Source: Candidatus Aldehydirespirator sp. (GTDB lineage Bacteria > Actinomycetota > Acidimicrobiia > Acidimicrobiales > Aldehydirespiratoraceae). From it: DNA of 64,000 nucleotides. How positions within the stretch are numbered: the stretch's first letter is position 1; each line of letters starts with the position of its first letter. Under the pieces are notes generated by a model, which searched no databases, was not told where the DNA came from, and saw nothing but the letters and a program-made list of their open reading frames with translations. Shown here in pieces: positions 22,877-56,748 of the stretch. Both the position numbers and the translations under genes were made by a program. Location of the stretch: positions 907,601 through 971,600 of the forward strand of contig OZ244872.1 of the NCBI GenBank assembly GCA_965221215.1, read 5' to 3'.

Positions 22877-22920
22877 CTCACCCGTATGGGCCGGAATCGC
22901 TCGCCTATTCGCTCGGCCTC

Positions 22921-25996: not shown

Positions 25997-26080
25997 GGCT
26001 GCGATTGTACGCGCATATTGATTCGGGTCTTTCCCGGTTGTTTCTCCTCGTCGAGGCCGCAGCCCGCGCGATTGCTGCGC

Positions 26081-26661: not shown

Positions 26662-26923
26662 TCGCGATCATCCTTGAGCGGACCCGGATCTGTTGCTGTT
26701 GCAACGGTATCACAGCGAGTCCTCGCTGATGTTCGGCTGATCCCGCGCGCACGGGCTTTGGGGCTGTCTCCCGCAGGCGCACCGGCAGCGTTCGGCATGG
26801 CCGTGCCTCATCTAGCCGAGATCGGCACCACCCTCGATGGCCTCCCCGAACGTAACCGTGTAACAACTCACAGCGGGCCGTTACCCTGCCGAGCGGGCTG
26901 GGGGAAGAGCGAAAGGAGCAGCG

Positions 26924-40277: not shown

Positions 40278-40332
40278 TGGCAGAGACAGCAGTGCTGAAT
40301 GGTCGGAAGTGCTTGATGCATGCAAAGGAGGA

Positions 40333-43300
40333 ATGGTCTTGCAGTTCTTGAGACGGCGTACAAGTGGGTGGCTCTGCGCCCTGCGGCGCGACGGCGGGCC
40401 CGACTGTTTGCAGAGCCCCCCAAACGTTCGCAGGCTGGTGGCGGTGCTGACCGTGGCGCTGGTCGCGTCGCTGCTGGCGGCGGCGCCGGTGCCGTTGTTG
40501 TCGGATGCGGGAGCGCCGCTAGCGCCGGCTGAGGCTGAGGCGCAGCAGGTCACCTCGCCGGCGGTTCTCAACAGGGTCTCGATCATCGAGGGCCAGACAC
40601 GCATCTTTCGGATCTCCAACGTGACGTCGCGCCCCAGCTATTACGTGCATGCCAGCGTCGCGGGCTCCTTCAGCGCCGAGGCGAGCGACGTCACGATCAC
40701 CACGGACAACCTGCGCGGCCAGGCACAGACGATCACCCCCGACACCGACGCGCCGCGCGCCTACCGAGACTCCATCCACAGCACCATCGGCTTCGAGGTC
40801 ACCGCGAACGAGGACAGCGACGGCACCGGCGAAGAGACGTTCGGGGTGCGGCTGTGCACCACCGCTGACTGTCAGAGCGGCACGGTCCTCGGCGAGTGGG
40901 AGGTGGCCATCACCGAGCCCGGTTCGGACACCGTGCTCACCGGCACGGGCGCGACCGTCACCATCCCTGGCGGCAGCGCGCTCAGCGTCATGGAGGACTC
41001 CCGCAACGGCGACGGCCGCGACCGGCGCGCCACGTTCACCATCGCTCTTGACTCGGCGCCGACCGAGGACATCGTGATCGTCGGCCAGGTGGACACCACG
41101 GCTGCCAACGGAGACGGCGTTGCCACATCGATTGCGCGCATCAACGCGGCGCGCTCTCCCGACGAGGAACCGTCGACCACGGCGCGCTATGTGGCTGCCA
41201 GGTTCTCCAACATGGTCACGGTCACCGACCCCGGGAACCCGAATGCCGATCCGCCCGTGCCCCCGTCCCAGACGACTCGGGCACCGACGGCTGACGAGCT
41301 CGCCACACAGGTCAGCGTTGTCGCGTTCGACAACGCGGTCGACACCGCAGGCGGGACGCTGAGCGGCGATCTCACGTTCACCGTCTACAAGGACAACGAT
41401 CGCTTCCGCGGCACCGGCGCCGACGTCGACGGGAACGGCGATCCCATTCTTGGCAACGCCGAGACGTACCCCGGCATTGTCATCCCCAGCGTGCCGATCA
41501 GGGTCACCGATGACGACGAGCCGACGAGGATCCGGCTGCTGCCCACCAGTCCCGCGGACAACACCGCGACGGAGGGCAACACCGACAAGGCCACGGTCCT
41601 GGTGAAGCTCGACCGTGCGCTGGCCGCGGGCGAGGAGGTCACCGCGACGCTGTTCTTCAGCGGCGCCACGTTGGGCACGCACTTCTCGATGGCGGCGGCG
41701 AGCGGGCAGACCGGCGTGACCTACGCCGACTCCGACGACGGAACAAAGGGGCTCGTCACCCTCACCGGTGCGGGCGTTCAGCAGGGTGTGATCGAGGTCA
41801 CCGCGCTCACCGACAGCGACTCTGACAACCAGGCGCTGCAGATCGGGATGCCGCCGACTGACCAACCCTGGCAGAGGAACTATCACCGCTCGAGCCTCGC
41901 CGGCGGGGTCTGCGCCGCGCACGGCTGCCCGAACCGTCCACAGGGCGACCCCGGCCAGCGCTTCCAGTCGGTCACCCTCGCCGAGTCGGCGGCGGGCCTC
42001 ACAATCATCGAGTCCGATGACCCCGACGCCCGCTGGGTGGTCGAGGGCAACGACTACAGCTACAGCGTCCGGTTGAAGGCGCAGCCGTCGATCGATGTGA
42101 CCGTGGCCACATCGATCGCGTCGGGCGGATCGGTGCAGGCCGGGGCGACGCTCACGTTCACCAACAGCGACTGGGCGATGCCGCAGACGGTGACGGTGCG
42201 TCCCACCGACAACGATCTGGACGAGACGCGGCGGACGCTGACGGTGACCCACGCCTTCAGCGGCGACGCCACGTATGCCGCCCTCGCGGATGTCGCGCAC
42301 GAAATCGGCGTGCTCGATGACGACCCGACCACCATCAACATGGCTGGCGCGGGCGTGAACACCGACGGAACCTCTACCAACATGTCGAAGATCATGGTGG
42401 AGGGCGACGCCAGCCGCGTTGACCGCAGCCTCACTATCGAATTGGGCCGCGCTCTGGTTGAGGACGAGTATGTGCGCGTCCCGCTGCGGGTTGAGGCCGT
42501 CGCCAACGGCAACAATCCGGAGCTCCCGGACGATCCGCCCGACCAAGACGAAGATGACGACCCGCTGCCGAGCGACCTCGACCCGCGGCGCACGGTGGTG
42601 GACAGCTTCCGCGGGCCGCGCGCCAGCGCCAATGTGGCCTGGCCGCCGTATCACAACGATGTCGTGATGACTGCCACCGGCACCGGTGTGACCTATGAGC
42701 ACTCCAACCGCCACACCCCCAATCACATCGGTTTCCGCTATATCGAGTTCCGCGGCGCGGGCGCGCAGACCGCGACGATCGTGGTGCACGCCCGCGGCGG
42801 CTTCGACGACGGCGAGAGCTACGACGAGGCGTTCGCGGTCACCTTCCCCAACGACTTCTACGTCTTCGATGAGGACACCGGCCAGCCGGTCAGCAGCACG
42901 CCGGTGCAGGGCAACCTCGGCGGCGGCCTCGAAGCGCAACCGACCGGCTTGGAGGCCTGGTACGGCATCGCCGACGACGACAAGATCGCAGCGGCGCAGA
43001 CCACCGAGGTGGCCAACAGCTGGTCGGCGAAGCCTCCCAGCTTGAGCGACGGCGCCGAGTTCCGGCTGCTGTATGTCACCAGCGGAACCAGAAACGCCAG
43101 CGAGGACGGCTACGCCACCTACAACAATTTTGTGCGTGCCGAGATCACCGGCAACCAGCTCACACAGGGCGGAGTGCCGGACCTGGTGCCGTACGCCACC
43201 AAATTCGCCGCGGTGATCAGCACCAACTCCTCTCAGGGCGTCCGTGGAGGCAACGCCTCCCTCAACGCCAACCTGGAAGACCCGAGCAACGACGCTGCCA

Positions 43301-46300
43301 TCTACTGGGTGGGCGGAACCAAAGTCGCCGACAACACCGCCGACTTCCTCGACGGCACCTGGGACGACGAGGCCAACCCCACCCGCGCCGACGGCACCGC
43401 GGCCACGATCAGCACGGCCGGCTACTGGACCGGCTCGGAGGCCGACGGCCAGCGCGCCGACAGCTGCAGCGGCCTGACGGGATCTGATCGGCATCTGCGA
43501 GCGGGCGCGACCAATGTCGGCTACGGGCTGCTCAACGACAACGGACGCGGGCCGCTGGGCCAAGCCGTGGACGAGACGAGCTGCCAACCCGCGCCCAACA
43601 GCGAGCGGCGGCCGCTGTATGCGCTGTCCACCGAAGCGTTCACCATCTCCGGCGGCGCCGCCATCGAGCCCGCCGCCACCGCCGCGGAGGGCAGCGCCGT
43701 CACCTTCGCCGTCACCATCACCACAGCCGCGCCCTCCGGCGGGATCACCATCCCCTACACCCTCGCCGACGGACGCGGCTACGACAACGACCCCGCCAAC
43801 ATCATCGCCACCAGCACCGACTACACCGACGCCGCCAGTGGCAGCATCGTGATCGCCCAGGGCGACACGACCGGCACCATCACCGTCAACACCACACAAG
43901 ACAGCACATACGAGAGCGACCACTACTTCACCGTCACCCTCGGTACGCCCACAGGCACCGACGCGCCCCAGGTGCAAGCCCTCAAGGGCACCGCCATCGG
44001 CACGATCACCGACGCCGACGACGCGCCCACCATCGAGTTCGCCCCCGCAACAGCTACAGCCGCCGAAGGCGACGGCACCGTGGATGTCACCGTCACCAAG
44101 ACCGGTGCCACGCTGCTGCCCGCGTCGGTGTACTGGACCACCGCCGACGACACCGCGTCACACCCCGACGACTACACCGCCAACGCCGGCTACCTCCAAT
44201 TCGCCCCCGGCGAAACATCCAAGACCATCACCATCGGCATCGTGGCGGACGGCGCCTCCGAGAGCGCCGAGACATTCAAGGTGCAACTCGACGCGCAGCA
44301 GATCGTCGACGCCCAGATCGGCAGTGCATCTGAGGCGACGGTCACGGTGAACGACGACGGGACCAGCGTCTCGGTGCCGAATGTGCAGTTCACCTCGGCG
44401 ACGCAGGCGGTGACCGAGGCCGCTACCACGCTCACCGTCACGGTCGAGGCGGACGCTGCGGCGCCGGCCAACACGGATGTGGCCTTCACGGTGGGCGGCG
44501 ACGCCACAGCCAGCTCGGACTACACCGCTCCCAGCAGCCCGGTCACCATCCTCGCTGGTCAACGCCGCACCACCATCAGCGTCCCGATCCTGCAGGACAG
44601 CGCAAGCGAGAGCCCCGAGACCATCGTGCTGACGCTGATCGACGGCACGGACTACAACCTCGGCTCGCAGACCACCCACACCATCACCATCAACGACGAC
44701 GATTCGTCGCCGATTGTGGAGTTCGCCTCCGCCGCCTCCAAGGGCAGCGAGGGCAACTCCGCCGTGGTCACCGTCGAGGCTTCCCGCCCGGTGGCACAGA
44801 ACACGGCCGTGACCTACACCAGCACCGGGGGGACGGCGACATCCGGCGACGACTACACCGCGCCCGGCGGCACCGTCACCATCCCGAGCGGCCAGAGCAC
44901 CGCTGCCATCACCATTCCCCTGACCGCGGACAGCATGGACGACTCCGGCGAGACCATCGTGCTGACTCTGACCGACGGCACGGACTACGACCTCGGCTCG
45001 CAGACCACCCACACCGTCACCATCTCGGAGGTGGGGTTCATCTTCACGCAGGAGCGCGTCTTCGTGACCGAGGGCGGTTCGGCGGTGCGCTACGGCATCT
45101 CTCTCACCGACGACCCCTCCGGCCTCAATACGGCGCTGCCCGCGTGCGACTACATTCTCGGCACCGACGAGGACAATCCGGTCGACCTGCCGCGCTGCAC
45201 CCCCGACCAGGATCCCGTCTTCGCCCGGGTCATCGTCACCTCGCCGGTCGCGCCCGCTCCGCCGGCGGCCAACCCCAACCCGTTCGAGGTGCTGACCAGC
45301 GGCAACGACCTGCTCCCCACGCTGCGATTCACCCGCCGCAACTTCCACATCCCGCAGTACTTCACCGTCTACCCGCTACAGGACGACGACCCCGACAGCG
45401 AGCAGAACGTGCGCATCACCCACGAGGTCCGCGGCGCTACGGACGATTCCGCCGACTTCCGCGACGACTCGCCCTATGCCACCGGCGGCAGCGTCAATGG
45501 CGTCGACACCGGCCTCGCAGTGCCCGACATGCCCGCCTACGTCTCCGACGACGACGCCGGTCACAAGGAGGGGCTGACGCTGCGACTTCTTGACAAAGAC
45601 CCCGACCTCCCGATCGTCATCCAGGAGGGCAACAAGACCGGCAGGTTCAATCTGGAGTGGCGCGGCCCCACCCTGGGCGGGGATGACGAAGTGGCGGCGC
45701 GTCTGCGTATCACCGGCGGCACGTACGGCAAGGACTACATCGTCGATGCGGAGAGCACCTCTAGTCCAAGGGTCACCTTCGAGCTGCCTATCGACGACGA
45801 ATCCACAATGGATGTGGACGAGTCACACGTCGAGAACGCGGAGATCATCATTCGATGGTTGGCCCCGTTCGGGCGTGTTCCTAGTGCCCAATTCAGAGTC
45901 GTGTCTCTCAGTGACGGCAAGGCGAAGAGCGGTGAACGCCACCTGGGTGTCCATCTTCTGAATGCATGGTCGCCAGACGATTCCGCCAACAAAGACAACG
46001 ACACCCCCGACGGTGTCCGCTTGGAGAACGGTCCCCAGACCAAGCGCATCCATGTCCTCTCCCGTGACCGGATAGTCGTTCGACAGACCGGTACGGAGGA
46101 TGGCTTGAAGTTCGAAGGTTTGGAGACCTCCGGCAGCGATGCCGAGCTCACGACCAACGGCGCGTGGGCGGCCGTTGATGAGGACGGGAGCACGGAACAC
46201 AAGCTCGCATTTGAGATGAGCAGTTGTGTCTTGCCCCGTACTAGCGCCGTGGTGACCGTCAGCACGAGCGACAGCTCCAAGCTGCGCGTCCATGCCAGCG

Positions 46301-49300
46301 ACGACATTGATGGCGTCGTCGACACGCTTACGTGGGGGCCGAACAACAACCCAGAAGGCCGCTGCGGTGAGGTTCACACCGTCAGCTTCATCGCGGATGA
46401 GGACGACGACTCCGACGACGAGGTGGTGGAGGTCTACGTCACCCTAACGAGCGGATATGGGAACGCTTACGTTGACGGCACTGTTGTGCGGACGTTCGAG
46501 GTGCGCATCACCGACGACGACGTGCCCGCAGGCGTGACGGTCTTCCCCACGGCCATTACGGTGCGCGAGGGCGCGAAGAAGGGCGCGAAAGTGGGCGAAG
46601 GCGACCCGCGTGAACGCACCAACCAGGTCGCCTTCAAACTGAACACCGACCCGGGCAGCGGCAACACGGTGCTGATCAACACCCGCGGCGGCGGAATGGC
46701 TGTCCAGAGGGACAAGAGCCAGCACCCCATGGAGTTCACCGGCGGCGAGTCCGGCACCTGGGACACATGGCAGTTTGTTGACATCACCGCGATGGACGAC
46801 AATGACAACGCCGACGACGCAGAAACCGTCAAATGGAGCGTGACAGGCACAGGCGATTACGGGAGCGTGCGCGACCTCAGTGTGGAGGTCACCATCATCG
46901 ACGATGATCCCGCCGTGCGCATCTCCAGGGAAACCATCACGATGGCTGAGCCCCATGTCGAGTCCAGCAGGGCGACAGGGTGGACTTATGAGGTTGTGCT
47001 CAACGTGAAGCCCCACAATGGGATCGTCCATGTTGTGCCCGCCACCGGCGATACCACGGCCGTGAGCTTCGGCAAAAATGACGATGGTCCGATCCTCACC
47101 CACAGGGGCCTGGACTTCACCCCCGAGAACTGGGACGCGCCGCAGACCGTAACCATCTTCCCGTTGGCTGACGGCGACTCCGACGACGAGACCGTCACCA
47201 TCACGCACTCCATCTCCAGCCAGGTCACCCGCACCATCACGAACGAGGATGGAACACCAGCGCAAGTTGGAGCGGCGCGCAACTACCGGCGTGTGTCTGT
47301 GCCGTCTATCGAGGTGAGCGTGCTGGACTCCGACCGCGCCGAGGGGATCGTGGTCGAGCCGGATGCGTTCGTGTCAGAGGGGGGCAGCGGCGGGTTCCCT
47401 GTGCGGCTGGCCGCGCCCGATGCCGTCAGTTTGGTTGTGACGGGCACCCACAGCGGTGTCGTCGTCGACACCGATCCCAGCCTCGACGGAGAGCAGCGGA
47501 CGCTGGTGTTCACTGAGGAGAACTGGTATGAGCCCCAGGCTGTCTTTTTGACGGCCGAGCAGGAGAGCGATAGCAGCGACACCGACGACGGCGTGTTCGA
47601 TTTGACTTTGACCGCCTGGACCGCTGGCGCGCCCGCCGAGGTGGGTCAACCGCCGAATCCTCCGGTGCTTGCCTCGGCCTATGGGACGGCGCCGGTGCGG
47701 GTGCATGTGTACGACGACGAGTTCGCGGGCGGGTCGACGTTCACCGTGACTGGGTCGAGCACGGTTACTGAGGGTGCCGCTCCCGCCATCTTCACCGTGC
47801 AAGCAGACACCGCGTCGTCCGTCGCGGTCGATGTGACGCTGCACATCTCAGAGACCGGCGATTTCGTCGCCGGCGGCGATGAGGGAGACCAGACCGTCGC
47901 CTTCAGCGGCGGCTCCGCCGTCCAGAACCACCAGGTCCCCATCGTCGACGACAATCTGCAGGAGTCTGACGGGACGATCATTGCGGAGCTCAAGCCGGGC
48001 AGCGGCTACCGGATCGGATCGCCGTCGCGGGCGTCTGTCGGCGTCACCGACGACGGCGACACCGGCACCGCGGCGCCGGTACGCATCACGATGGCGGTGG
48101 CCGACGGCGACACGTCCACGGGCGATGTAGTTGAGGGCGCGGGCGACTCCACGGGCTACAAGACGGTCACGTTGACGCTGGATCGGGCCCTGACCAGCGG
48201 CGAGACGGTCACCGTGCCCCTGACGGTCTCGGGCGCAGCGGTGACAACGGATTACACCTTCGGCCTGCACGGCTCCGGGAACACTGGCGTCACGCTGGCC
48301 ACGAGCGGGTCGTATAGCGCACAGAACCCGGCGGTGCAGTTCGCCAGCGGTGCGAGGGTCGCGACGCTGCGGTTCACGCCTGTAAACAACGACGACCGCA
48401 CGCAGCCCGCGATCGATATCCGCATCGGGACGGTCGAGGCGTCGGCCGGCATCACCCACACGACGGCCGGTTCGCCCGTCGGCTTCTTGATCCGCGACGA
48501 CGAGATGGGCGTGATCGAGGTGCCCCGCACCTGGGCGCTCAAGCCCTCGGGGGTGGGCGCCGGCGGGGAGTTCCGGCTGCTGTTCATCACGTCGGAGACG
48601 AGGACGGCCGAGTCGACCGACATCGAGGCATACAACGATTGGGCGCAGGGCGTGGCGGCGCGCAACGGGCATGTCTCCCTGAAGCCCTACGGCGGTTTGC
48701 TCAAGGTGGTCGGCAGCACCGAGTCGGTGAACGCCCGCGTGAACACGGGCATGTGGGATCCGAACACGAGCGGGTTCGTGGACGGCTCCACGGGCAGGTC
48801 CTCTTCTGGCGTTCGGGTCTATTGGCTGGCTCCGGCGTCAGCGGCGAAGGTGGCCGACAGCTACTTCGAGTTCTTCAGCCATCCCTGGGACGGCGGCACC
48901 CATCAGGACACTCGCGACACGCTTGAGTCCGGCATCGCGCGGGACAGCGGCAGCGCGATCTGGACCGGTTCGAACACGAACGGCACGGCTCACTCGGCGC
49001 CGCTCGGAGGCAACGCGCAGAACTGGGTGCGCACGGGCCATGCAATGACCGCGGGCGGTGCTACTACCAACTTGTCTCGAGACAGGGCCACCAAGACCGG
49101 CACCCTGCCCCTCTATGTGATGTCGCCGGTGTTCCGGGTGGAGGGCGCCGAGGCCGAGTTGAGCATCTCTGGCGGGACGGTGGCAGAGGGCGGCACGCTG
49201 ACGGTGACTGTTGATCTCAGCGCGGCGGCGCCGTCGGTGCTGAACATCCCAGTGCAGATGCGCACGAGCGGCAACCCGACTGCGTCGTCAGCCGATTTCT

Positions 49301-52300
49301 CGCTGTCGAACAGCGGCAATGTGGCTATCGCTATGGGCGCCACATCGGGCACCCTGACGTTCACCGCTGAAGACGACATGATCGATGAGGACTCCGAGAC
49401 GCTGACTCTGGAGTTCGGGACGCTGCCCGACGGCGTGATCGCGGGCACGACCTCCAGCGTCGGTGTGACGATCACCGACAACGACACTGCGGGTGTGACC
49501 GTTGCTGAGACGTCGGGCGGTACGACAGTGTCGGAGGACGGCTCGACTACGACTGACACGTACACGGTGGTGTTGGATACTGAGCCGTTGAACAATGTGG
49601 TGGTGACGGTTACTGCGCCGGCGGGGACGCAGGTCAGCACCGACAGCGGCTCGACATGGCACTCGTCGCGAAACCTCACGTTCAACCCGTCGGGGTCGGG
49701 GATCTGGTCGTCGCCGCAGACGGTGACGGTGCGCGGCCAGAACGACGACATCGACAATGCCGGCGATGAGCGCACGATCAGTGTCACGCATGCGATCACC
49801 GATGGTGACGGCAGCAAGTACACCACGTCGACGCCGAGCATCGCGGCGGTGTCGGTGACGGTGACCGACAATGACACGGCCGGAGTGACGGTGGTGCAGT
49901 CGGGAGGGAACACGGTTGTCGCTGAGAACGGCGGCACGGACACGTACACGGTGGCGTTGGACACGCAGCCGCTCTCGAACGTGGTGGTCACGCTCACGAG
50001 CGGCGCGTCGACGGCGGCGTTGTTGAGCGGGGGAGGGCAGACGAATCAGGGCACGGTGACGCTGACCTTCACGCCGACCAGTTGGGGCGCGCAGACGGTG
50101 ACCGTGCGGGGCGTGAACGACGCCATCGACAACGCCAACGACCGCCGAACGGTGACGATCACCCAGTCGGTCACGACGGGCGACACGAACGGCAAGTACA
50201 CCACCAGCACCAACGTGGCGAACGTGAGCGTGAGGGTCAACGACGACGGCGACACGGCGGCGGTGACTGTCACTCCGAGCGGCGGCACAACGACCGTGAC
50301 CGAGGACGGCAGCGACACCGACGATTACACGGTAGTGCTGGACACGCAGCCGCTGAGCAGTGTGACGATCACGGCCACGGCGCCGGCGGGGGCGCAGGTC
50401 AGCGACGACGGCGGCACGTCGTGGGGGTCGTCGGTGGATCTGACGTTCACGTCGGGCACGTCGGGCAACTGGGGCACGGCCCAGACGGTGACCGTGCGGG
50501 GCACGCAGGACATCATTGACAATCCGGGCGACCAGCGCAGCATCACCATCACCCACGCGATCACTTCTGGCAACGGCGACGGGAGCCGCTACACGCCGTC
50601 GACGCCGTCGAAGCCGAGCGTGGCGGTGAGGGTGAACGACGACGACCCGAAGCCGACACAGATCACCTTGACCACGAACCGCAACACTGCGGTGTCGGAG
50701 GGCACGGCGTCGACCATGGTGACGGTTACCGCGACAGTGCAGGGCCCGACGCGCTTCGGCGCCGACAAGACGGTGGCGGTGAGCGTCGACGCCAGCGCCG
50801 ACGTTAATGGCGGCGCCAACTATGTGGACATGACCGCGGTGGCTGATTTCAACATCACGATCCCGGCGGGCGATCGGACTGCGACAGGGATGTTCACCAT
50901 CACGCCGGACAACGACATGGTGGACGAGTCCGACAACAGCATTGCGGTGACCGGCAGCGTGTCGGGGGACTCGGCGGTGACGGTGAACCCGGCGACGCCG
51001 ATCATGCTGAGGGACAACGACAATGCGCCGACAGTGGTGAATCTGAGTGTGACGCCGAACTCGATCAGCGAGAACGGCGGCGCTCGGAGCATCTCGGTGA
51101 CCGCGACAGTGCAGGGCTCGACCCGGTTCGGGACAGACAAGACGGTGGCGGTGTCGGTGGCGGGCCACAACGCGGCGGGCGCGGTGGGGTTCACCCAGGT
51201 GTCGACGTTCAGTGTGGTGATCTCCGCGGAGCAGCAGACGTCGTCGGGCAGCGACAGTTTCACGCTGACTCCCGACAACAACATCTGGAACGAACAGGAC
51301 GGCTCGGCGGTGCTCAGCGGCACGTTGTCGGGGGTGACGGTCAACGGTGCGAGCGTGACGTTGACCAACGACGATGCCGAGCCGCCGGGGGTGACCCTGT
51401 CGGTGAGCGACGAGATGATCGGCGAGGCCGACGGGGCTCAGACGATAACGGTGACCGCGACGGTGCAGGGCGCGACGCGCTATGGCACGGCGCGCACGGT
51501 GAACGTGAGCGTGGCAGCTTCAGGCAACGCGGATGCGGTGGACTTCACCGCTTCGACGCCGATGGCGATCATGCTGGCGCCGGGTGACCGCACCGCAACG
51601 ACGACGTTCACGCTGACGCCGACCGCCGACAGTGTGGACGAGTTCGACGAGACGATCACGGTGTCGGGCACGGGAGCGGACATCGCGGCGTTCACCGATG
51701 CGTCGATCACGCTGGCCGACGACGACGCGACCACCCTCACGATGACTGCGCCCGCGGGTGCGGTGGCTGAGAGCGGCGGCACCACCGACGTGACGCTGAC
51801 GCTGAGCCGGGCGCTGGTGGACGGCGAGTCGGTGACGGTGCCGCTGGATGTGGTGGGAGCGGCGGCAAGATCCGATTACACGCTGGGGTTGCAGCCGTCG
51901 TCGCAGACTGGTGTGGCGCTGTCTGTATCGGGCTCTGACAGCGTCCAGGCGCCCAAGGTGACTCTGACCACCGGCGCTGAGACCGCGGTGATGCGGTTCA
52001 CCGCGGTTGATGACAGCACCCGCACCCAGCCGTATGTGCTGGTGCGCTACGGCACCGGGGCCCGGGCGCCGTCGGGCGCGGGCGTGGATTTCGCGGCGCC
52101 GGCGGATGGGCCGGTGGGCTGGGTGATCACCGACAACGAGACCGGCGACATTGTGGTGCCGCAGTCTTGGGCGCTGTCGCCCAGCGGTGTGCAGAATCAG
52201 GGCGAGCCGAGGTTCCGGCTGGTGTTCGTGTCGTCGGCGAAGCGCGACGCCTCCTCCACAGACATCGCCGAATATGACGCGTTCATCCGCGGCCTGCTCG

Positions 52301-55300
52301 CGCAGGGGCACACTGCGGTTGTTCCCTATGCGGGGTTCTTCACCGTTGTGGGGTCCACCTCGGGCGTGCATCTGAGGGACCACGCGAACGTGGCGGGATC
52401 TGCGACGATGCCGTTCTATTGGCTGGGCGAGACCGGAGACACCACCAAGCGGGTCGCGGTGGACAACAGCCAGTTCCGCGGCGAGTGGATCGACACCGAG
52501 ACGCCGTCTTCGCAGAGCGTGCCCCGCAACGAGTCCGGCGCCGTGGTGTCGGTCGACAGCAACGGCTATTTCACCGGATCCACCGCCGCGGGGGCGCGGT
52601 CGGCCAATCCGCTGGGCTCGACGAACGTCACGGTCGGCTATCTCAACGACAGCGGCAGCGGCCGGGCGCCGCTGGGCAGCGGCCAGACGGTCGCCAACAC
52701 CGCCACGCGCAGCTTCTACGGGCTGTCGCCGGTGTTCGTGAGGGCCAGCGACCCTGTCGTCTCGGTGACCACATCGCAGACGTCGGTGGCTGAGGGCACC
52801 GCTTTGAGCTTCACCGTGAGCGCCGACCCCGCGCCGCCCAACGCGATAACAGTGCGGTTGTGGGTCTCGCAGAACTCCGGGCGCGACATGGTGCCCGTCG
52901 TCGGGGAGCAGATGGTGGCGTTCGCGGCGGGCGACACCTCCAAGACGCTCACGGTGGCCACTGCCGGCGACAACAGCGACGAGGCCGACGCCGAGGTGTC
53001 GGCGAGAGTGTTGAACAACGCCGGCTACACGGTGAGCGCCACCGCCGCCGAGGCGTCGGTGACAGTCACCGACAACGACGCCATGACCGTGTCGGTGTCT
53101 GGCGGCGGCGGAAGCGTGAGCGAGGGATCGAGCCGCGACTACACCGTCGATCCGGGCCGCAGCCTGTTGTCGGGTGAGACGGTGACGGTGAACTTCGCTC
53201 CGGCGGGCAGCGCCACCCGGGGCTCGGACTACACGATCACCTGCCACGGCACAGGCGTGACCTGCGCGGGCCTGGGCGGCACCACACCGAGCTTGACCAT
53301 CACTGGCGGCAGCGGCGTGCGCAACGCCACCATCCGCATCAACGCCCAGAACGACATGGTGCATCCCGAGTCCGGCGAGACCGCCGGGATCAGCCTGCGC
53401 TCAGGGCATGCCAGCACAGGCTCGGGCGGCACGTTCTCGGTGAGCGGCTCACCGTCGACGTTCACCATTGCGAGCACCGCCCCCGCCGCGATCACCGCGT
53501 CGTTCGATTTGGCCGCCTACGGGGTGGGGGAGGCGGCGGGTGCCCGCTCGGTGCCGGTGACGCTCTCGCGGGTTGCGCCCTCGGGTGGGCTGGTTGTGTC
53601 CTACACCACCGGCGGAGATGCGGTCTCGGGCGACGACTACAGCGGCGCGGGCGGCACGGTGACCGTCGCGGCGGGCCAGACCTCAGCGAGCATCTCTTTC
53701 ACGGTCATCGACGATGTATTGGCTGAGGGCGCTGAGACCTTGACGTTCACCCTCACCGACGGCGCGAACTACGACCTGGGGTCGCCGAGCCAGACCACGA
53801 TCACGATCAACGACAACGACATCGCCCCCTCCAGCATCACTTTGGGCGTTGACGACAACAGTGTGAACGAGGCCGACGGCGCGACGACGGTCACCGTGAC
53901 TGCCACCGTCAGCGGTTCGACACGCTTCGCGGAGTCCAAGACGGTGGCGGTGACGGTGGCGGGGTCGGGTGCCGCCAACACGGTGGGGTTCACTGCGAAC
54001 CCGTCGATGTTCAACATCACCATCGCCGCTGGCGCGCAGACCGGGACCGGCATGTTCACGCTGACCCCCACCGACAACAGCGTCGACGAGAACAACGAGA
54101 CGGTCACAGTGTCGGGAGCGCTGTCGGGGGTCACGGTGAACTCTGCGACGATCACCCTCATAGACGACGACACGACCGTGGCGACGCCGGTCACGGTCAC
54201 CTTGTCGGCGCCGGCGGGCGACGTCACCGAGGGCGCTAGCGGCGCCGCCGGACGCAAGGACGTCACGATCACCCTGGGTCGAGCGCTGGCCGGCACTGAG
54301 ACAATCACGGTGCCGCTGGAGGTGTTCGGCGCCACCGTCGCCACCGACTACAGCTTCGGGCTGCAGCCCGCCACCCAGGCCGGGGTGGCGCTTCTCACTT
54401 CGAACCCGTACAGCGCTCAGCATCCGGCGGTGCGCCTGTCGGCGGGAGCGTCGAGCGCGGTGCTGCGGTTCATGCCGGTGAACAACAGCGTGCGCACCCA
54501 GCCTCTTGTGACGATCAACAGGAACTCCAGTCATCAGACCACCGGTGGGGGCGGCGCGACGTTGGGGGCGGTGTCGGGCGGCCCGTTCAAGTTCTTGGTC
54601 ATCGACGACGAGACCGGCGATATCACCGTGCCGAGCAGTTGGGCGCTGGCCCCGTCGGGGCTGTCGGCGGGCGACGACTTCCGGCTGCTGTTCCGCTCCT
54701 CGACGACCCGCGACGCCACATCGTCGAACATCGCGGACTACGACTTCTTTGTGCGCGACGTGGTGGCGTTGGGCGGCCATAGCGCGGCGCTGCCCTATGC
54801 GGGGTTCTTCAAGGCGTTCGCGTCGACCCGCAGCGCCTCGGGCTCGACGGGCACCACCGCCCGGGTGCACAACAACATGGCCTCGGGCCACACCGGTCAC
54901 TTCAGCGGCGCGAACGACGTGTGGGCCGACGGATCCACCGTCCCCAACGCAGGCAACACGACGGGGACGCCGATCTATTGGCTAAACGGCGCCAAGCTCG
55001 CCAACAACTACGCCGACCTGTGCGACCAAGCCTTGAAGTCGGGCAGCGGGGTCACCACCGGCTGGGATCTCGACGACCCCCGCAGCGAGGACGGAAACCG
55101 CAACATTGCGGCGGGAACGAACCCCGGTCAGACCCATCAGGCATGGACCGGCACCGGCAACGCCTGCGAGGCCTACAACCACCCCCTCGGCGGCGACAAC
55201 AACGGCGACGTCTCGCGTGCCGCCAGCCACGACACGACCTGGGCGTTCATGCACCAGGCCCAAAACGCTCGATCACAGCAGCGGCCCCTCTATGGCATGT

Positions 55301-56748
55301 CGCCAGTGTTCAAGATCGCCGGCGCATCCCCGCCGCCACCGCCTCCGCCGCCGACGCCGGTCGCGTCGTTCGCGGCGGCCTCGTCCACCGTGGGGGAGGC
55401 GTCGGGCAGTCGCAACCTCCGGTTGGATCTCAACCCGGCGCCCGCCGCGGCCATCACCGTCAACTACACGCTGTCGGGCTCGGCGGTCCGCGGCAGCGAT
55501 TACACCATCGCAGGAGTCTCGTCCAACAACGGCACCGTCTCTGTCAATGCCAACCAGAGCATCGTGAACATCCCCATAGTGATCACAGACGACAACGCCG
55601 TAGAGAGTTCTGAGGCGATTGTTGTGACCCTCAACACCGGCTCGGGATACACGCTCACCGGCGCTGCCCATCGTGTGCACACCCGCACCATCACCGACAA
55701 CGACACCACCCCGACCACCCCGGTCGCGTCGTTCGCGGCGGGCGCATCGACCGTCAGTGAGGCGTCGGGCACCACGAACATCCGGCTGAACCTCACCCCG
55801 GCACCCACAGTCGGTATCACCGTGAGATACACCCTGTCTGGCTCGGCGGTTCGCGGCAGCGACTACACCATCTCAGGCGTCTCCTCCAACAACGCCACTG
55901 TTGCGGTCTCGGCCAATCAGGGGTTCGTGAACATCGGTGTGCGCATCGTCGATGACAGCACCCGGGAATCCGCCGAGACCATCCGCCTGACGCTCAACAC
56001 CGGCTCGGGCTACACGCTCACGGGTGCCACGAACCGGGTCCATACCCGCACGATCACCGACAACGACACCACCAGCCCACCGCCGCCTCCTCCACCGCCG
56101 CCTCCTCCACCGCCTCCGCCGCCGCCGCCTCCACCACCACCGCCTCCTCCCGCGCAGGATGAGTCGGAGACGGTTTTGGAGCCCGAGACCTTCGACGACA
56201 TCGACGAGGTCCACGAGGTGCACGCCTCCGATGTGGCCCAGGCCAACGAGATGGGCTGGCTCACCGGCGTCGGCTGCGACACCGGGGCGTTCTGCGGCCG
56301 CGAGGCCATGAACCGCTGGCAGCTCGCGGTCATGATCGTGCGAGCCCTGGACGGCGCCAATCCCGACGCCGATCCCGCCGCGCCCCGCTTCCGCGACGTG
56401 TCGCCTGCGGCCTGGTGGTCGGTCCATGTGCGGCGCCTCGCCCAGCTCGGCATCACACTGGGCTGCGACGCCAGACGGTTCTGCCCCGACCGGCCGGTGA
56501 CGCGCGCCGAGGCCGCGTCGCTGCTGGCACGCGCCTACGGGCTCACCACCGACGCGGAGACGAGCTTCACCGACCTCGACGAAGGCGACGTCCACGCCGA
56601 TGCGGTCGCCGCGCTCTACCGCTCCGGCATCACCAACGGCTGCGACGACGGACGGTTCTGCCCCTATCAGCCCCTTACCCGCCAGCAAGCCGCCAGCCTG
56701 CTGATACGGGCCCAGAACGCCGCCCAAGAAACCGACAACGACTCCTGA
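40333..56748 (+). CDS. Giant (about 5470 aa) secreted, SLH-anchored, Calx-beta-rich surface protein
   Basis: A single uninterrupted ORF (track 40309..56748). The signal-like N-terminus is NVRRLVAVLTVALVASLLAAAPVPLL...APAEAEA. It has dozens of beta-sandwich repeats, many with the Calx-beta signature (GTA..gDDY...GT.tF..G...k.i.i....D...E..E.F.v.L). It also has 4 lectin-like modules, a Pro25 spacer and 3 SLH repeats. The start is ambiguous among ATG 40309, ATG 40333 and TTG 40339. Confidence 0.9.
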   Translation: MVLQFLRRRTSGWLCALRRDGGPDCLQSPPNVRRLVAVLTVALVASLLAAAPVPLLSDAGAPLAPAEAEAQQVTSPAVLNRVSIIEGQTRIFRISNVTSRPSYYVHASVAGSFSAEASDVTITTDNLRGQAQTITPDTDAPRAYRDSIHSTIGFEVTANEDSDGTGEETFGVRLCTTADCQSGTVLGEWEVAITEPGSDTVLTGTGATVTIPGGSALSVMEDSRNGDGRDRRATFTIALDSAPTEDIVIVGQVDTTAANGDGVATSIARINAARSPDEEPSTTARYVAARFSNMVTVTDPGNPNADPPVPPSQTTRAPTADELATQVSVVAFDNAVDTAGGTLSGDLTFTVYKDNDRFRGTGADVDGNGDPILGNAETYPGIVIPSVPIRVTDDDEPTRIRLLPTSPADNTATEGNTDKATVLVKLDRALAAGEEVTATLFFSGATLGTHFSMAAASGQTGVTYADSDDGTKGLVTLTGAGVQQGVIEVTALTDSDSDNQALQIGMPPTDQPWQRNYHRSSLAGGVCAAHGCPNRPQGDPGQRFQSVTLAESAAGLTIIESDDPDARWVVEGNDYSYSVRLKAQPSIDVTVATSIASGGSVQAGATLTFTNSDWAMPQTVTVRPTDNDLDETRRTLTVTHAFSGDATYAALADVAHEIGVLDDDPTTINMAGAGVNTDGTSTNMSKIMVEGDASRVDRSLTIELGRALVEDEYVRVPLRVEAVANGNNPELPDDPPDQDEDDDPLPSDLDPRRTVVDSFRGPRASANVAWPPYHNDVVMTATGTGVTYEHSNRHTPNHIGFRYIEFRGAGAQTATIVVHARGGFDDGESYDEAFAVTFPNDFYVFDEDTGQPVSSTPVQGNLGGGLEAQPTGLEAWYGIADDDKIAAAQTTEVANSWSAKPPSLSDGAEFRLLYVTSGTRNASEDGYATYNNFVRAEITGNQLTQGGVPDLVPYATKFAAVISTNSSQGVRGGNASLNANLEDPSNDAAIYWVGGTKVADNTADFLDGTWDDEANPTRADGTAATISTAGYWTGSEADGQRADSCSGLTGSDRHLRAGATNVGYGLLNDNGRGPLGQAVDETSCQPAPNSERRPLYALSTEAFTISGGAAIEPAATAAEGSAVTFAVTITTAAPSGGITIPYTLADGRGYDNDPANIIATSTDYTDAASGSIVIAQGDTTGTITVNTTQDSTYESDHYFTVTLGTPTGTDAPQVQALKGTAIGTITDADDAPTIEFAPATATAAEGDGTVDVTVTKTGATLLPASVYWTTADDTASHPDDYTANAGYLQFAPGETSKTITIGIVADGASESAETFKVQLDAQQIVDAQIGSASEATVTVNDDGTSVSVPNVQFTSATQAVTEAATTLTVTVEADAAAPANTDVAFTVGGDATASSDYTAPSSPVTILAGQRRTTISVPILQDSASESPETIVLTLIDGTDYNLGSQTTHTITINDDDSSPIVEFASAASKGSEGNSAVVTVEASRPVAQNTAVTYTSTGGTATSGDDYTAPGGTVTIPSGQSTAAITIPLTADSMDDSGETIVLTLTDGTDYDLGSQTTHTVTISEVGFIFTQERVFVTEGGSAVRYGISLTDDPSGLNTALPACDYILGTDEDNPVDLPRCTPDQDPVFARVIVTSPVAPAPPAANPNPFEVLTSGNDLLPTLRFTRRNFHIPQYFTVYPLQDDDPDSEQNVRITHEVRGATDDSADFRDDSPYATGGSVNGVDTGLAVPDMPAYVSDDDAGHKEGLTLRLLDKDPDLPIVIQEGNKTGRFNLEWRGPTLGGDDEVAARLRITGGTYGKDYIVDAESTSSPRVTFELPIDDESTMDVDESHVENAEIIIRWLAPFGRVPSAQFRVVSLSDGKAKSGERHLGVHLLNAWSPDDSANKDNDTPDGVRLENGPQTKRIHVLSRDRIVVRQTGTEDGLKFEGLETSGSDAELTTNGAWAAVDEDGSTEHKLAFEMSSCVLPRTSAVVTVSTSDSSKLRVHASDDIDGVVDTLTWGPNNNPEGRCGEVHTVSFIADEDDDSDDEVVEVYVTLTSGYGNAYVDGTVVRTFEVRITDDDVPAGVTVFPTAITVREGAKKGAKVGEGDPRERTNQVAFKLNTDPGSGNTVLINTRGGGMAVQRDKSQHPMEFTGGESGTWDTWQFVDITAMDDNDNADDAETVKWSVTGTGDYGSVRDLSVEVTIIDDDPAVRISRETITMAEPHVESSRATGWTYEVVLNVKPHNGIVHVVPATGDTTAVSFGKNDDGPILTHRGLDFTPENWDAPQTVTIFPLADGDSDDETVTITHSISSQVTRTITNEDGTPAQVGAARNYRRVSVPSIEVSVLDSDRAEGIVVEPDAFVSEGGSGGFPVRLAAPDAVSLVVTGTHSGVVVDTDPSLDGEQRTLVFTEENWYEPQAVFLTAEQESDSSDTDDGVFDLTLTAWTAGAPAEVGQPPNPPVLASAYGTAPVRVHVYDDEFAGGSTFTVTGSSTVTEGAAPAIFTVQADTASSVAVDVTLHISETGDFVAGGDEGDQTVAFSGGSAVQNHQVPIVDDNLQESDGTIIAELKPGSGYRIGSPSRASVGVTDDGDTGTAAPVRITMAVADGDTSTGDVVEGAGDSTGYKTVTLTLDRALTSGETVTVPLTVSGAAVTTDYTFGLHGSGNTGVTLATSGSYSAQNPAVQFASGARVATLRFTPVNNDDRTQPAIDIRIGTVEASAGITHTTAGSPVGFLIRDDEMGVIEVPRTWALKPSGVGAGGEFRLLFITSETRTAESTDIEAYNDWAQGVAARNGHVSLKPYGGLLKVVGSTESVNARVNTGMWDPNTSGFVDGSTGRSSSGVRVYWLAPASAAKVADSYFEFFSHPWDGGTHQDTRDTLESGIARDSGSAIWTGSNTNGTAHSAPLGGNAQNWVRTGHAMTAGGATTNLSRDRATKTGTLPLYVMSPVFRVEGAEAELSISGGTVAEGGTLTVTVDLSAAAPSVLNIPVQMRTSGNPTASSADFSLSNSGNVAIAMGATSGTLTFTAEDDMIDEDSETLTLEFGTLPDGVIAGTTSSVGVTITDNDTAGVTVAETSGGTTVSEDGSTTTDTYTVVLDTEPLNNVVVTVTAPAGTQVSTDSGSTWHSSRNLTFNPSGSGIWSSPQTVTVRGQNDDIDNAGDERTISVTHAITDGDGSKYTTSTPSIAAVSVTVTDNDTAGVTVVQSGGNTVVAENGGTDTYTVALDTQPLSNVVVTLTSGASTAALLSGGGQTNQGTVTLTFTPTSWGAQTVTVRGVNDAIDNANDRRTVTITQSVTTGDTNGKYTTSTNVANVSVRVNDDGDTAAVTVTPSGGTTTVTEDGSDTDDYTVVLDTQPLSSVTITATAPAGAQVSDDGGTSWGSSVDLTFTSGTSGNWGTAQTVTVRGTQDIIDNPGDQRSITITHAITSGNGDGSRYTPSTPSKPSVAVRVNDDDPKPTQITLTTNRNTAVSEGTASTMVTVTATVQGPTRFGADKTVAVSVDASADVNGGANYVDMTAVADFNITIPAGDRTATGMFTITPDNDMVDESDNSIAVTGSVSGDSAVTVNPATPIMLRDNDNAPTVVNLSVTPNSISENGGARSISVTATVQGSTRFGTDKTVAVSVAGHNAAGAVGFTQVSTFSVVISAEQQTSSGSDSFTLTPDNNIWNEQDGSAVLSGTLSGVTVNGASVTLTNDDAEPPGVTLSVSDEMIGEADGAQTITVTATVQGATRYGTARTVNVSVAASGNADAVDFTASTPMAIMLAPGDRTATTTFTLTPTADSVDEFDETITVSGTGADIAAFTDASITLADDDATTLTMTAPAGAVAESGGTTDVTLTLSRALVDGESVTVPLDVVGAAARSDYTLGLQPSSQTGVALSVSGSDSVQAPKVTLTTGAETAVMRFTAVDDSTRTQPYVLVRYGTGARAPSGAGVDFAAPADGPVGWVITDNETGDIVVPQSWALSPSGVQNQGEPRFRLVFVSSAKRDASSTDIAEYDAFIRGLLAQGHTAVVPYAGFFTVVGSTSGVHLRDHANVAGSATMPFYWLGETGDTTKRVAVDNSQFRGEWIDTETPSSQSVPRNESGAVVSVDSNGYFTGSTAAGARSANPLGSTNVTVGYLNDSGSGRAPLGSGQTVANTATRSFYGLSPVFVRASDPVVSVTTSQTSVAEGTALSFTVSADPAPPNAITVRLWVSQNSGRDMVPVVGEQMVAFAAGDTSKTLTVATAGDNSDEADAEVSARVLNNAGYTVSATAAEASVTVTDNDAMTVSVSGGGGSVSEGSSRDYTVDPGRSLLSGETVTVNFAPAGSATRGSDYTITCHGTGVTCAGLGGTTPSLTITGGSGVRNATIRINAQNDMVHPESGETAGISLRSGHASTGSGGTFSVSGSPSTFTIASTAPAAITASFDLAAYGVGEAAGARSVPVTLSRVAPSGGLVVSYTTGGDAVSGDDYSGAGGTVTVAAGQTSASISFTVIDDVLAEGAETLTFTLTDGANYDLGSPSQTTITINDNDIAPSSITLGVDDNSVNEADGATTVTVTATVSGSTRFAESKTVAVTVAGSGAANTVGFTANPSMFNITIAAGAQTGTGMFTLTPTDNSVDENNETVTVSGALSGVTVNSATITLIDDDTTVATPVTVTLSAPAGDVTEGASGAAGRKDVTITLGRALAGTETITVPLEVFGATVATDYSFGLQPATQAGVALLTSNPYSAQHPAVRLSAGASSAVLRFMPVNNSVRTQPLVTINRNSSHQTTGGGGATLGAVSGGPFKFLVIDDETGDITVPSSWALAPSGLSAGDDFRLLFRSSTTRDATSSNIADYDFFVRDVVALGGHSAALPYAGFFKAFASTRSASGSTGTTARVHNNMASGHTGHFSGANDVWADGSTVPNAGNTTGTPIYWLNGAKLANNYADLCDQALKSGSGVTTGWDLDDPRSEDGNRNIAAGTNPGQTHQAWTGTGNACEAYNHPLGGDNNGDVSRAASHDTTWAFMHQAQNARSQQRPLYGMSPVFKIAGASPPPPPPPPTPVASFAAASSTVGEASGSRNLRLDLNPAPAAAITVNYTLSGSAVRGSDYTIAGVSSNNGTVSVNANQSIVNIPIVITDDNAVESSEAIVVTLNTGSGYTLTGAAHRVHTRTITDNDTTPTTPVASFAAGASTVSEASGTTNIRLNLTPAPTVGITVRYTLSGSAVRGSDYTISGVSSNNATVAVSANQGFVNIGVRIVDDSTRESAETIRLTLNTGSGYTLTGATNRVHTRTITDNDTTSPPPPPPPPPPPPPPPPPPPPPPPPPAQDESETVLEPETFDDIDEVHEVHASDVAQANEMGWLTGVGCDTGAFCGREAMNRWQLAVMIVRALDGANPDADPAAPRFRDVSPAAWWSVHVRRLAQLGITLGCDARRFCPDRPVTRAEAASLLARAYGLTTDAETSFTDLDEGDVHADAVAALYRSGITNGCDDGRFCPYQPLTRQQAASLLIRAQNAAQETDNDS
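43009..43653 (+). other. Lectin-like module copy 1 (about 200 aa, unassigned family)
   Basis: VANSWSAKPPSLSDGAEFRLLYVTSGTRNASEDGYATYNNFV...AIYWVGGTKVADNTADFLDGTWD...YWTGSEADG...RRPLYALSTEAF. Confidence 0.6.
44020..45030 (+). other. Block of three canonical Calx-beta domains (example region)
   Basis: Examples: EGDGTVDVTVTKTG...WTTADDTASHPDDYTANAGYLQFAPGETSKTITIGIVADGASESAETFKVQL and EGNSAVVTVEASR...TSTGGTATSGDDYTAPGGTVTIPSGQSTAAITIPLTADSMDDSGETIVLTL. Confidence 0.75.
48520..49146 (+). other. Lectin-like module copy 2
   Basis: VPRTWALKPSGVGAGGEFRLLFITSETRTAESTDIEAYNDWA...RVYWLAPASAAKVADSYFEFF...IWTGSNTNG...LPLYVMSPVFRV. Confidence 0.6.
49478..50645 (+). repeat. Three tandem ~125-130-aa domain repeats inside the giant gene
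   Basis: The units start DNDTAGVTVAETSGG..., DNDTAGVTVVQSGGN... and DDGDTAAVTVTPSGG... Each contains DTYTV.LDT.PL..V...., W...QTVTVRG..D.IDN and a (V/R)V.D(N/D)D boundary. Confidence 0.8.
52156..52746 (+). other. Lectin-like module copy 3
   Basis: VPQSWALSPSGVQNQGEPRFRLVFVSSAKRDASSTDIAEYDAFI...PFYWLGETGD...YFTGSTAAG...RSFYGLSPVFVR. Confidence 0.6.
54628..55323 (+). other. Lectin-like module copy 4
   Basis: VPSSWALAPSGLSAGDDFRLLFRSSTTRDATSSNIADYDFFV...PIYWLNGAKLANNYADLCD...AWTGTGNAC...RPLYGMSPVFKI. Confidence 0.6.
55351..56073 (+). repeat. Two tandem ~120-aa domain repeats (360 + 363 bp) just upstream of the Pro25 spacer
   Basis: One unit is PVASFAAASSTVGEASGSRNLRLDLNPAPAAAITVNYTLSGSAVRGSDYTIAGVSSNNGTVSV...HTRTITDNDTT. 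The other is PVASFAAGASTVSEASGTTNIRLNLTPAPTVGITVRYTLSGSAVRGSDYTISGVSSNNATVAV...HTRTITDNDTT. The DNA copies are clearly alignable by eye with many substitutions. Confidence 0.85.
56077..56151 (+). repeat. 25 consecutive proline codons (CCN) forming a Pro25 spacer
   Basis: Counted from cca at 56077 to ccc at 56149-56151. Mixed cca/ccg/cct/ccc codons are used. A shorter Pro run (SPPPPPPPPTP) lies at about 55327-55356. Confidence 0.9.
56191..56718 (+). other. Three S-layer homology (SLH) repeats, a cell-wall anchoring module
   Basis: FDDIDEVHEVHASDVAQANEMGWLTGVGCDTGAFCGREAMNRWQLAVMIVRAL; FRDVSPAAWWSVHVRRLAQLGITLGCDARRFCPDRPVTRAEAASLLARA; FTDLDEGDVHADAVAALYRSGITNGCDDGRFCPYQPLTRQQAASLLIRA. All three fit the SLH pattern F.DV...W....V..L...GI..G....F.P...vTRaeaA.ll.R. 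Confidence 0.8.

Follow-up and report, generated by a model that had tools for sequence, protein, structure and literature searches.

A 16.4-kb gene in an Acidimicrobiia genome encodes a predicted SLH-anchored surface fibre carrying four endostatin-like modules

Here we describe a giant gene in a 64,000-nucleotide stretch of contig OZ244872.1 from Candidatus Aldehydirespirator sp., referred to below as the window, whose product is predicted to be a cell-wall-anchored surface protein with four copies of an endostatin-like module. The gene occupies a single uninterrupted frame on the + strand that runs from a GTG codon at 40309 to 56748 (5479 codons) and has 5471 codons when counted from the ATG at 40333, in agreement with an earlier interpretation made from the sequence alone (the sequence-only reading), which had described one open frame of about 5470 codons. 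Directly 5' of the candidate starts, the sequence reads as a Shine-Dalgarno-like AAAGGAGGA (40324..40332, +), and the GGAGG at 40327-40331 lies 1 nt 5' of ATG 40333 and 7 nt 5' of a TTG at 40339. Given this spacing, the true start should be either 40333 or 40339; we list the coding sequence as 40333..56748 (+), with GTG 40309 and TTG 40339 as alternative starts (5471-5479 codons). The mature protein would comprise about 5400 amino acids (aa), with a mass of about 556 kDa and an isoelectric point of 4.2, and is rich in Thr, Ala, Gly, Val, Ser and Asp. The GC content at third codon positions (GC3) is of the coding type, at 0.87 over the whole 16 kb, and matches that of the neighbouring genes, while antisense open reading frames (ORFs) overlapping the gene are the usual by-product of a GC content of about 69%.

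The giant 16.4-kb gene is real, intact and conserved. Repeats within the protein share 30-74% identity. At the DNA level, internal repeats reach at most 86% identity over less than 230 nt, and the best of them fall between 75 and 86% within stretches shorter than 370 nt, divergence that makes repeat collapse during assembly unlikely. A collapsed tandem repeat was rejected on the grounds that the internal repeats are old and divergent and that a run of 25 prolines near the C-terminus uses mixed CCN codons. Misassembly is also argued against by a collinear, intact ortholog in the same gene neighbourhood of an independent metagenome-assembled genome (MAG), described below.

The protein starts with a long basic region, followed by a signal-peptide-like segment (40429..40545, +; aa 41-79) that consists of Arg-Arg at aa 41-42, a 22-residue hydrophobic core (h-region, aa 43-64) and the sequence AEA/QQ, and that is kept in the ortholog. 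The h-region reaches a Kyte-Doolittle mean of up to 2.5 and is the sole strongly hydrophobic segment of the protein. By inspection and hydropathy the N-terminus thus looks like a Sec-type signal, as the sequence-only reading had suggested.

At the opposite end, module 4 is followed by a run of eight prolines (Pro8; aa 5008-5015, nt 55330-55353, +), two Calx-beta domains, a spacer of exactly 25 prolines (Pro25; 56077..56151, +; aa 5257-5281) and a triple SLH domain (56206..56745, +; aa ~5300-5479). The SLH assignment comes from Pfam, phmmer, an AlphaFold model and Foldseek. PF00395 matched with 68.4 bits against a cut-off of 20.8 (E 5e-19), with two stretches matching and the first repeat divergent, and phmmer aligned the region with the SLH domain of Sap (3pyw; E 4e-15) and also showed similarity to that of SbsB. 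The AlphaFold model (predicted local distance difference test, pLDDT, 91.4) contains three helix-loop-helix units, and Foldseek returned 15 significant matches to it, all of them Sap or SpaA SLH domains and several with pyruvylated N-acetylmannosamine (ManNAc) ligands. Target-normalised template-modelling (TM) scores against 3pyw, 6bt4 and SpaA-SLH were 0.77-0.84 over 172-182 columns, spanning the three repeats. The model thereby confirmed that the region has the solved triple SLH fold, in which three repeats build one pseudo-threefold helical spindle, and the Pro25 spacer and three C-terminal SLH repeats proposed from the letters alone were both recovered.

The motifs of the successive SLH repeats read NRWQ, TRAE and TRQQ, and in an alignment of 34 sequences one Arg and one Gly per repeat (R51, R114, R173 and G37, G100, G159) are invariant or nearly so. 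In the solved SpaA and Sap complexes, the conserved Arg of the TRAE-type motif and the Gly of each repeat contact pyruvylated ManNAc. Each repeat also holds a Cys pair in the form GC-x4/5-FC (aa 5323/5329, 5386/5392 and 5445/5451), followed by Pro in repeats 2 and 3. This pair is present in the consensus of all three repeats among the 34 sequences of the subfamily and is absent from the aligned Sap SLH; it may form a disulfide-stapled loop. The nearest SLH triplets belong to small proteins, one of them named Acidimicrobiia, in which they are fused to CAP, SLT, Rpf-like transglycosylase, lysyl-oxidase or Excalibur domains. Since similar triplets sit on these small CAP, SLT, Rpf-like and Excalibur proteins, SLH anchoring looks like a regular device of this Acidimicrobiia lineage. 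We found no paper on SLH-type wall anchoring in Acidimicrobiia in a literature search.

Between the two ends lies a body of beta-sandwich repeats. Pfam Calx-beta (PF03160) is significant at only seven domains: four at 43660..45030 (+; aa ~1118-1574; four stretches, 170.9 bits, E 1e-50), one at 53497..53820 (+; aa 4397-4504; 47.7 bits) and two at 55363..56067 (+; aa 5019-5253; 43.1 bits) that are 69-74% identical to each other. The block of four matches the Ca2+-binding domain of NCX1 in the PDB (CBD, 3us9; E 6e-12). About 20 other sandwich repeats fall below the Pfam cut-off, and 12 of them are linked to Calx-beta by hhalign alone. These 12 belong to three types. Type B (five copies, including three tandem repeats of ~125 aa at 49501..50646, +, aa 3065-3446) aligned with Calx-beta at 79% probability (E 1.6e-5), type C (four copies, comprising three tandem repeats of ~118 aa at 50662..51726, +, aa 3452-3806, and a fourth at aa 4510-4621) at 68% (E 4.8e-5), and type Y at 52% (E 1.4e-4, against canonical Calx-beta), compared with 0.1% for an unrelated control. 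The three type Y copies (48106..48504, 51736-52140 and 54196-54612, +) precede endostatin-like modules 2-4. Based on these probabilities of 52-79%, the 12 repeats of types B, C and Y are probably distant Calx-beta relatives. A transitive hidden Markov model (HMM) seeded on the canonical copies converged on 27 domains, part of which lack independent support, and 20 domain ends carry V-x-V-x-D-[DN]-x. Dozens of repeats, many with a Calx-beta signature, had been claimed from the letters, which was somewhat generous although not wrong: seven are supported by Pfam and about 12 as distant relatives, and the rest are not. HMM scans and structure prediction had been set beforehand as the check on the domain assignments; SLH held by both, and Calx-beta by HMM and by PDB sequence match. 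No catalytic domain was found in the giant protein in Pfam, NCBIfam and PDB scans, as had been judged by eye.

A module of about 200 aa, called lectin-like in the sequence-only reading, occurs four times in this body. Module 1 (43000..43665, +; aa 898-1119; profile E 3e-39) is the most divergent copy, module 2 (48511..49167, +; aa 2735-2953) is the copy we used for modelling, and modules 3 (52147..52770, +; aa 3947-4154; profile E 3e-56) and 4 (54619..55341, +; aa 4771-5011) likewise match the profile, the latter being followed by the Pro8 linker. The consensus of 25 copies reads VPxDWxLxPxG…FRLLFxTS…YNxFVQ…GH…FxVVGST…ARDNT…GVPIYWLNGxKVAD…DFYDGSWD…ESG…WTGSNxNGT…LG…YxLSPVF. None of these 25 copies matched any Pfam family at E<=1, including PF06482 and PF07588; the giant protein's own modules had no match in NCBIfam, and a search of PDB sequences with the module profile returned nothing even at E=10.

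The structure of the module was more informative. An AlphaFold model of module 2, built from the 25-copy alignment, reached a pLDDT of 91.3 and a predicted TM score of 0.89. Foldseek found five significant matches to this model in the PDB, and all were endostatin, four from collagen XVIII (1dy1, 1koe, 1dy0 and 1bnl) and one from collagen XV (1dy2), with a probability of 1.00, E values of 6e-5 to 1.5e-3 and target-normalised TM scores of 0.64-0.66. The next matches were C-type lectins at E>2. When the module was paired by hhalign with human endostatin, a series of motifs could be matched by eye in the same order: FRLLF with LHLVAL, YNxFVQ with FQCFQQ, FxVVGST with FRAFLSS, VPIYWL with VPIVNL, and VWTGSNxNG with VWHGSDPNG. 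The relationship to endostatin is carried mainly by the fold match, because profile-sequence similarity is weak. Mammalian endostatin has two conserved disulfides and an N-terminal His/Asp zinc site, and neither Cys nor His occupies any invariant or near-invariant position when the 25 copies are aligned. Judged by the model, the module has an endostatin-type compact C-type-lectin-like fold that lies outside the Pfam endostatin and DUF1554 families. Foldseek narrows the lectin-like label of the sequence-only reading to endostatin specifically.

Two related possibilities were discarded. The module is not a C-type lectin domain of the PF00059 type, for which there was no Pfam match; structures of that class appeared only at E>2, and the EPN/QPD and WND motifs are not in the consensus. 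C-type-lectin folds are also the classic targets of diversity-generating retroelements, and we found neither a reverse transcriptase among the scanned ORFs of the window nor a near-identical pair of template and variable repeats in it.

We then asked how widely the module occurs. A search of 1.84 billion representatives clustered at 50% identity with the module profile gave 6560 matching proteins at E<=1e-3, of which 1892 also passed E<=1e-30; a single protein can hold as many as 14 copies, and many of the carriers are 2000-7600 aa long. In ten carriers scanned with Pfam, the unannotated module was accompanied only by fn3 and cadherin domains, and a word-indexed search added He_PIG, Cadherin-like and SWM_repeat as partners. 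None of these ten carriers matched PF06482 or PF07588, even at E=1, and neither family appears in the precomputed Pfam annotations of the listed relatives. By profile search, the module is a large, so far unnamed bacterial domain family of at least 6500 clusters at 50% identity, and, going by its fn3, cadherin, Calx-beta or PEP-CTERM company, it is extracellular wherever its context is visible. Small single-domain relatives (P0291, P0302, P0316, P0323 and others) carry PEP-CTERM or VPLPA-CTERM sorting signals; those with PEP-CTERM include one from a named Schlesneria sp. and another from a Deltaproteobacteria MAG. Several of the small PEP-CTERM relatives gave weak matches to NCBIfam NF033554 (floc_PepA) at E 3e-8 to 1e-3, partly over the full length, with 12-34 bits against a curated cut-off of 80 bits. 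We treat this similarity to PepA as a lead, not as family membership, and the giant protein has no PEP-CTERM signal and its modules have no NF033554 match.

Relatives of the giant gene were sought by scanning one genome per GTDB species with aa 2590-3045, and three loci were found. The MAG "Acidimicrobiia bacterium jk18xAbins.52" (JAJEDD010000044.1; locus L002) contains an intact ORF of 5497 aa that is collinear with the giant protein and matches it in signal region, long polyproline spacer and SLH end as well as in having four modules, and its flanking DNA is syntenic and 92-96% identical. This nearest genome bears out the sequence-only assignment to an actinobacterial type, and the "jk18x…bins" naming matches that of MAGs from Caribbean Ircinia sponges (Kelly et al. 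2022, PMC9531527). A second relative (L004) lies on a complete chromosome of Candidatus Poriferisodalis sp. (Actinomycetota; Acidimicrobiia; Ca. Poriferisodalaceae), where an ORF of at least 6275 aa at 32-18859 of the locus, its N-terminus outside the locus, carries four endostatin-like modules and no SLH end. Two long-read metagenome assemblies also contain homologs, here split into many consecutive same-strand ORFs (L001, positions 3805-17957, and the whole of L003), which could be homopolymer sequencing error or genuine pseudogenisation. By sequence comparison, the source is a member of the Acidimicrobiia whose closest relatives come from a sponge-MAG naming scheme and a sponge-symbiont family. 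Sponge-symbiotic Acidimicrobiia of the family Poriferisodalaceae/TK06 show a significant enrichment of Calx-beta, cadherin and fn3 proteins, and Calx-beta is enriched in Ircinia microbiomes (PMC9531527).

Comparison with the ortholog in the Ircinia-type MAG revealed that the giant gene does not evolve evenly. In a sliding comparison, the ratio of non-synonymous to synonymous divergence (dN/dS) was 0.15-0.7. The distal third (40546..44379, +; aa 80-1357), which includes module 1, is fast-evolving: over aa 1-1357, identity is 42-69%, dS 0.5-0.84 and dN 0.2-0.6, while the rest of the protein shows 73-94% identity, dS 0.14-0.64 (at most 0.37 except in one gap-rich block) and dN 0.03-0.2. For the downstream aminotransferase, the corresponding values are 97%, 0.12 and 0.015, and identity in the flanking genes is about 97%. 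The proximal modules are the best-conserved parts, at 89-94% identity, and the SLH triplet is 89.5% identical. The high dS of the distal third suggests recombinational replacement of an allele or cassette rather than point mutation alone. A variable exposed tip on a conserved stalk and anchor fits a surface fibre under pressure from its partners, be they host, phage or neighbouring cells.

We propose, with a probability of roughly 60%, that the giant protein is a fibre exported by Sec, tethered through SLH and probably stiffened by Ca2+, which displays its endostatin-like modules for binding to sponge matrix or polysaccharide. After export through Sec via the N-terminal signal, the C-terminal triple SLH would bind non-covalently to a secondary cell-wall polymer, which is probably pyruvylated, and Pro25 would act as a stiff polyproline-II spacer of about 8 nm (25 residues x 0.31 nm) through the wall. 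Around 30 beta-sandwich domains, counting seven canonical and about 12 distant Calx-beta domains, many with D-D/N-D/E boundaries, would form a rod of about 100-150 nm, probably stiffened by seawater Ca2+. The four endostatin-like modules are spaced along this rod, three of them after the same type Y sandwich. They would serve as the ligand-binding units and hold the cell either to extracellular polysaccharide or to the matrix of the sponge mesohyl, with its glycans and its collagen- or fibronectin-like components; this binding role is inferred by analogy with Len proteins, C-type-lectin-like folds and PepA. The tip exposed to variable partners would be the distal third with module 1, the part that is replaced or diverges much faster. 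A wall-tethered fibre or adhesin had already been put forward in the sequence-only reading, and the signal, SLH fold, spacer, repeat body and lack of a catalytic domain on which it was built all held, although wall attachment and adhesion themselves are deductions from the sequence.

Other explanations were weighed against this proposal. It is conceivable, though considerably less probable, that the protein organises a matrix or aggregate, with its modules binding the exopolysaccharide of the cell itself or of its neighbours, as has been proposed for PepA, and thereby giving a capsule-like matrix or a microcolony in the sponge. PepA is required to keep exopolysaccharide cell-bound in floc formers (PMC9850573), and its overexpression turns soluble exopolysaccharide into the bound form. 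The PEP-CTERM sorting signals of single-domain module relatives, the weak near-full-length NF033554 matches of several of them and the occurrence of the family beyond host-associated bacteria all point in this direction. However, the PepA matches are far under the cut-off (at most 34 against 80 bits) and arise partly from the shared PEP-CTERM tail, the giant protein's own modules have no NCBIfam match, and there are no exopolysaccharide genes nearby in the window. We consider it less probable again that the fibres form a protective coat, a dense brush or S-layer-like canopy against sponge phagocytes or phages that needs no specific ligand. An SLH anchor is the classic attachment device of S-layers, the protein is very acidic and rich in Thr, Ser and Asp, and fast divergence of an exposed tip would also be expected under phage or immune pressure. 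Yet S-layer proteins are usually lattice formers of 40-200 kDa, not modular chains of 556 kDa, a fold of the lectin type conserved in four copies is difficult to account for if nothing is bound, and within the chain it is the proximal modules that are conserved best.

A released, toxin-like effector that acts on host cells at a distance, with the SLH domain making only transient contact with the wall, seems very unlikely. The Candidatus Poriferisodalis homolog lacks an SLH end, and endostatin itself is a released bioactive fragment, but Pfam and NCBIfam scans turned up neither a toxin or protease nor an RTX or type I secretion signal, and the SLH triplet is closely conserved in the ortholog and keeps the ligand-contact Arg/Gly pattern. 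Least credible is an assembly artefact or decaying gene, in which repeats had been collapsed or joined into a chimera, or a pseudogene had stayed open by chance. The split homologs in the two long-read assemblies would be in line with it, but the internal repeats are too divergent for collapse, an independent short-read MAG carries the intact collinear gene with dN/dS of 0.15-0.7, a complete long-read chromosome (L004) holds an intact ORF of at least 6275 aa, and coding-like GC3 extends across the whole 16 kb. This explanation is close to refuted.

Several observations nevertheless weigh against the sponge-binding fibre we favour. The resemblance of the module to endostatin is moderate, with query-normalised TM scores of 0.53-0.56 and 9-14% identity, and the hhalign pairing with the human sequence is weak (E 0.003, 10% probability). 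Because the Candidatus Poriferisodalis homolog has no SLH end, members of the family need not be anchored in this way. As regards the wall polymer, no pyruvyl-transferase (CsaB, PF04230) or cell-wall polymer gene was detected in the window or beside two related SLH genes. Ca2+ binding was deduced from motifs, and the strict Calx acidic motif D/N-D...E..E occurs in only 6 of the 27 domains. About 1000 aa in all (aa 80-411, 673-897 and much of 1578-2470) had no family match in Pfam, NCBIfam or hhalign searches and might harbour an unrecognised activity. Finally, the module family also occurs in bacteria that are not obviously host-associated, such as Schlesneria and the Deltaproteobacteria MAG, which makes a sponge-specific ligand less likely.

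Among known proteins, the nearest functional analogy for the four modules is provided by the leptospiral Len proteins (LenA-F; DUF1554, PF07588), a bacterial surface domain of endostatin-like type. Len proteins are outer-surface proteins that resemble mammalian endostatin (1koe) and are reported to bind host fibronectin, laminin and factor H (Stevenson et al. 2007). They are small, single-domain spirochaete lipoproteins, whereas here four modules without a PF07588 or PF06482 match lie in a 5400-aa, SLH-anchored actinobacterial chain. The endostatins of collagen XV and XVIII (NC1; 1dy1, 1koe, 1dy2 and 1bnl) gave the only significant structural matches and share the motif order, but the module differs from them in lacking conserved Cys and the N-terminal His Zn cluster, in its extra loops, in its length (~200-240 against ~180 aa) and in being bacterial and multicopy. 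It is tempting, although doubtful, to suppose that the module family is truly homologous to collagen XV/XVIII endostatin and that sponge symbionts display multiple copies of it on giant wall-anchored fibres to engage host matrix or matrix receptors. If true, this would place matrix mimicry at the base of the animal tree and might hint at where the endostatin fold arose.

In overall build, the giant protein resembles the giant adhesins LapA, SiiE, MpIBP and FrhA of Gram-negative bacteria, which are likewise acidic and consist of long Ca2+-binding chains of beta-sandwich extenders with inserted ligand-binding modules. A LapA-domain match in the giant protein (E 0.008) was below the cut-off, and FrhA was among the non-significant fold matches of the module. 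Such adhesins leave the cell by type I secretion, directed by a C-terminal signal, and the LapA type also has an N-terminal retention module for the outer membrane. In contrast to these adhesins, the giant protein begins with a Sec-type signal and ends in an SLH wall anchor, belongs to a presumably monoderm cell and has its modules spread along the rod instead of at the tip alone. We rejected a type I-secreted RTX or LapA-type adhesin, since no RTX or retention-module family was present and the termini are of the SLH and Sec types. The SLH domain has the same fold, with one Arg and one Gly per repeat, as that of S-layer proteins such as Bacillus anthracis Sap and EA1, Paenibacillus alvei SpaA and Geobacillus SbsB. 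Unlike in Sap and SbsB, where it is N-terminal, it is C-terminal here, has extra Cys pairs and carries a modular fibre of 5200 aa as its passenger instead of a lattice protein. New relative to these known types are the combination of Sec export with a C-terminal SLH anchor in place of type I secretion, the SLH Cys pairs and the four copies of an unnamed domain family. The pairing of an SLH anchor with lectin-like modules had been called unusual from the letters; the modules are now specified as endostatin-like, and the SLH part is not exotic in this lineage.

How sponge symbionts persist in the mesohyl and escape being eaten is an open question that is usually approached through counts of "eukaryotic-like" Pfam domains. 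Among the eukaryotic-like repeat proteins of these symbionts (Calx-beta, cadherin, fn3 and LRR), the giant protein is an extreme example, and its gene offers a concrete candidate, a predicted 556-kDa wall-anchored fibre kept in a sponge-associated Acidimicrobiia lineage. Enrichment surveys count Pfam domains, and the endostatin-like module, having no Pfam model, has been missed by them; a literature search found no paper linking endostatin-like domains to sponge symbionts, and the sponge-symbiont surveys are silent on SLH anchoring. What makes the gene interesting is chiefly its module family, and less its size. Public metagenomes contain the module in abundance and its fold is predicted with confidence; its solved structural relatives are limited to collagen endostatin, with the leptospiral adhesins added by published analogy, and its ligand is directly testable with recombinant modules. 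The present data also document SLH-type wall anchoring with a Cys-pair variant in Acidimicrobiia.

The giant gene is surrounded by ordinary metabolic genes, encoding dehydrogenases, an M24 peptidase, aminotransferases and an S9 peptidase, together with STAND/AAA_16 and Beta_propel genes. No secretion, sortase, cell-wall polymer or pyruvyl-transferase genes were found near it in the window. Scans for tRNA and Rfam families had no match anywhere in the window, and promoter and terminator scans added nothing. No ORF passes the GC3-based coding filter in 1-4193, 21861-23846, 25503-26863 and 29369-30372. Two paralogs with a C-terminal Oxidored_molyb domain and long unannotated N-terminal extensions lie at 19785-21860 (-) and 23850-25502 (-), separated by about 2 kb in which no ORF passes the coding filter. 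Immediately upstream of the giant gene and on the same strand, a gene for an AAA_16/STAND-type NTPase of 367 aa (39174-40277, +) ends about 30-60 nt before it, and the DNA holding this gene is also present in the Ircinia-type MAG at about 94% identity. About 5 kb downstream, at 61726-63834 (-), a Beta_propel protein (PF09826, E 9e-129) belongs to a family whose members are typically secreted or at the surface.

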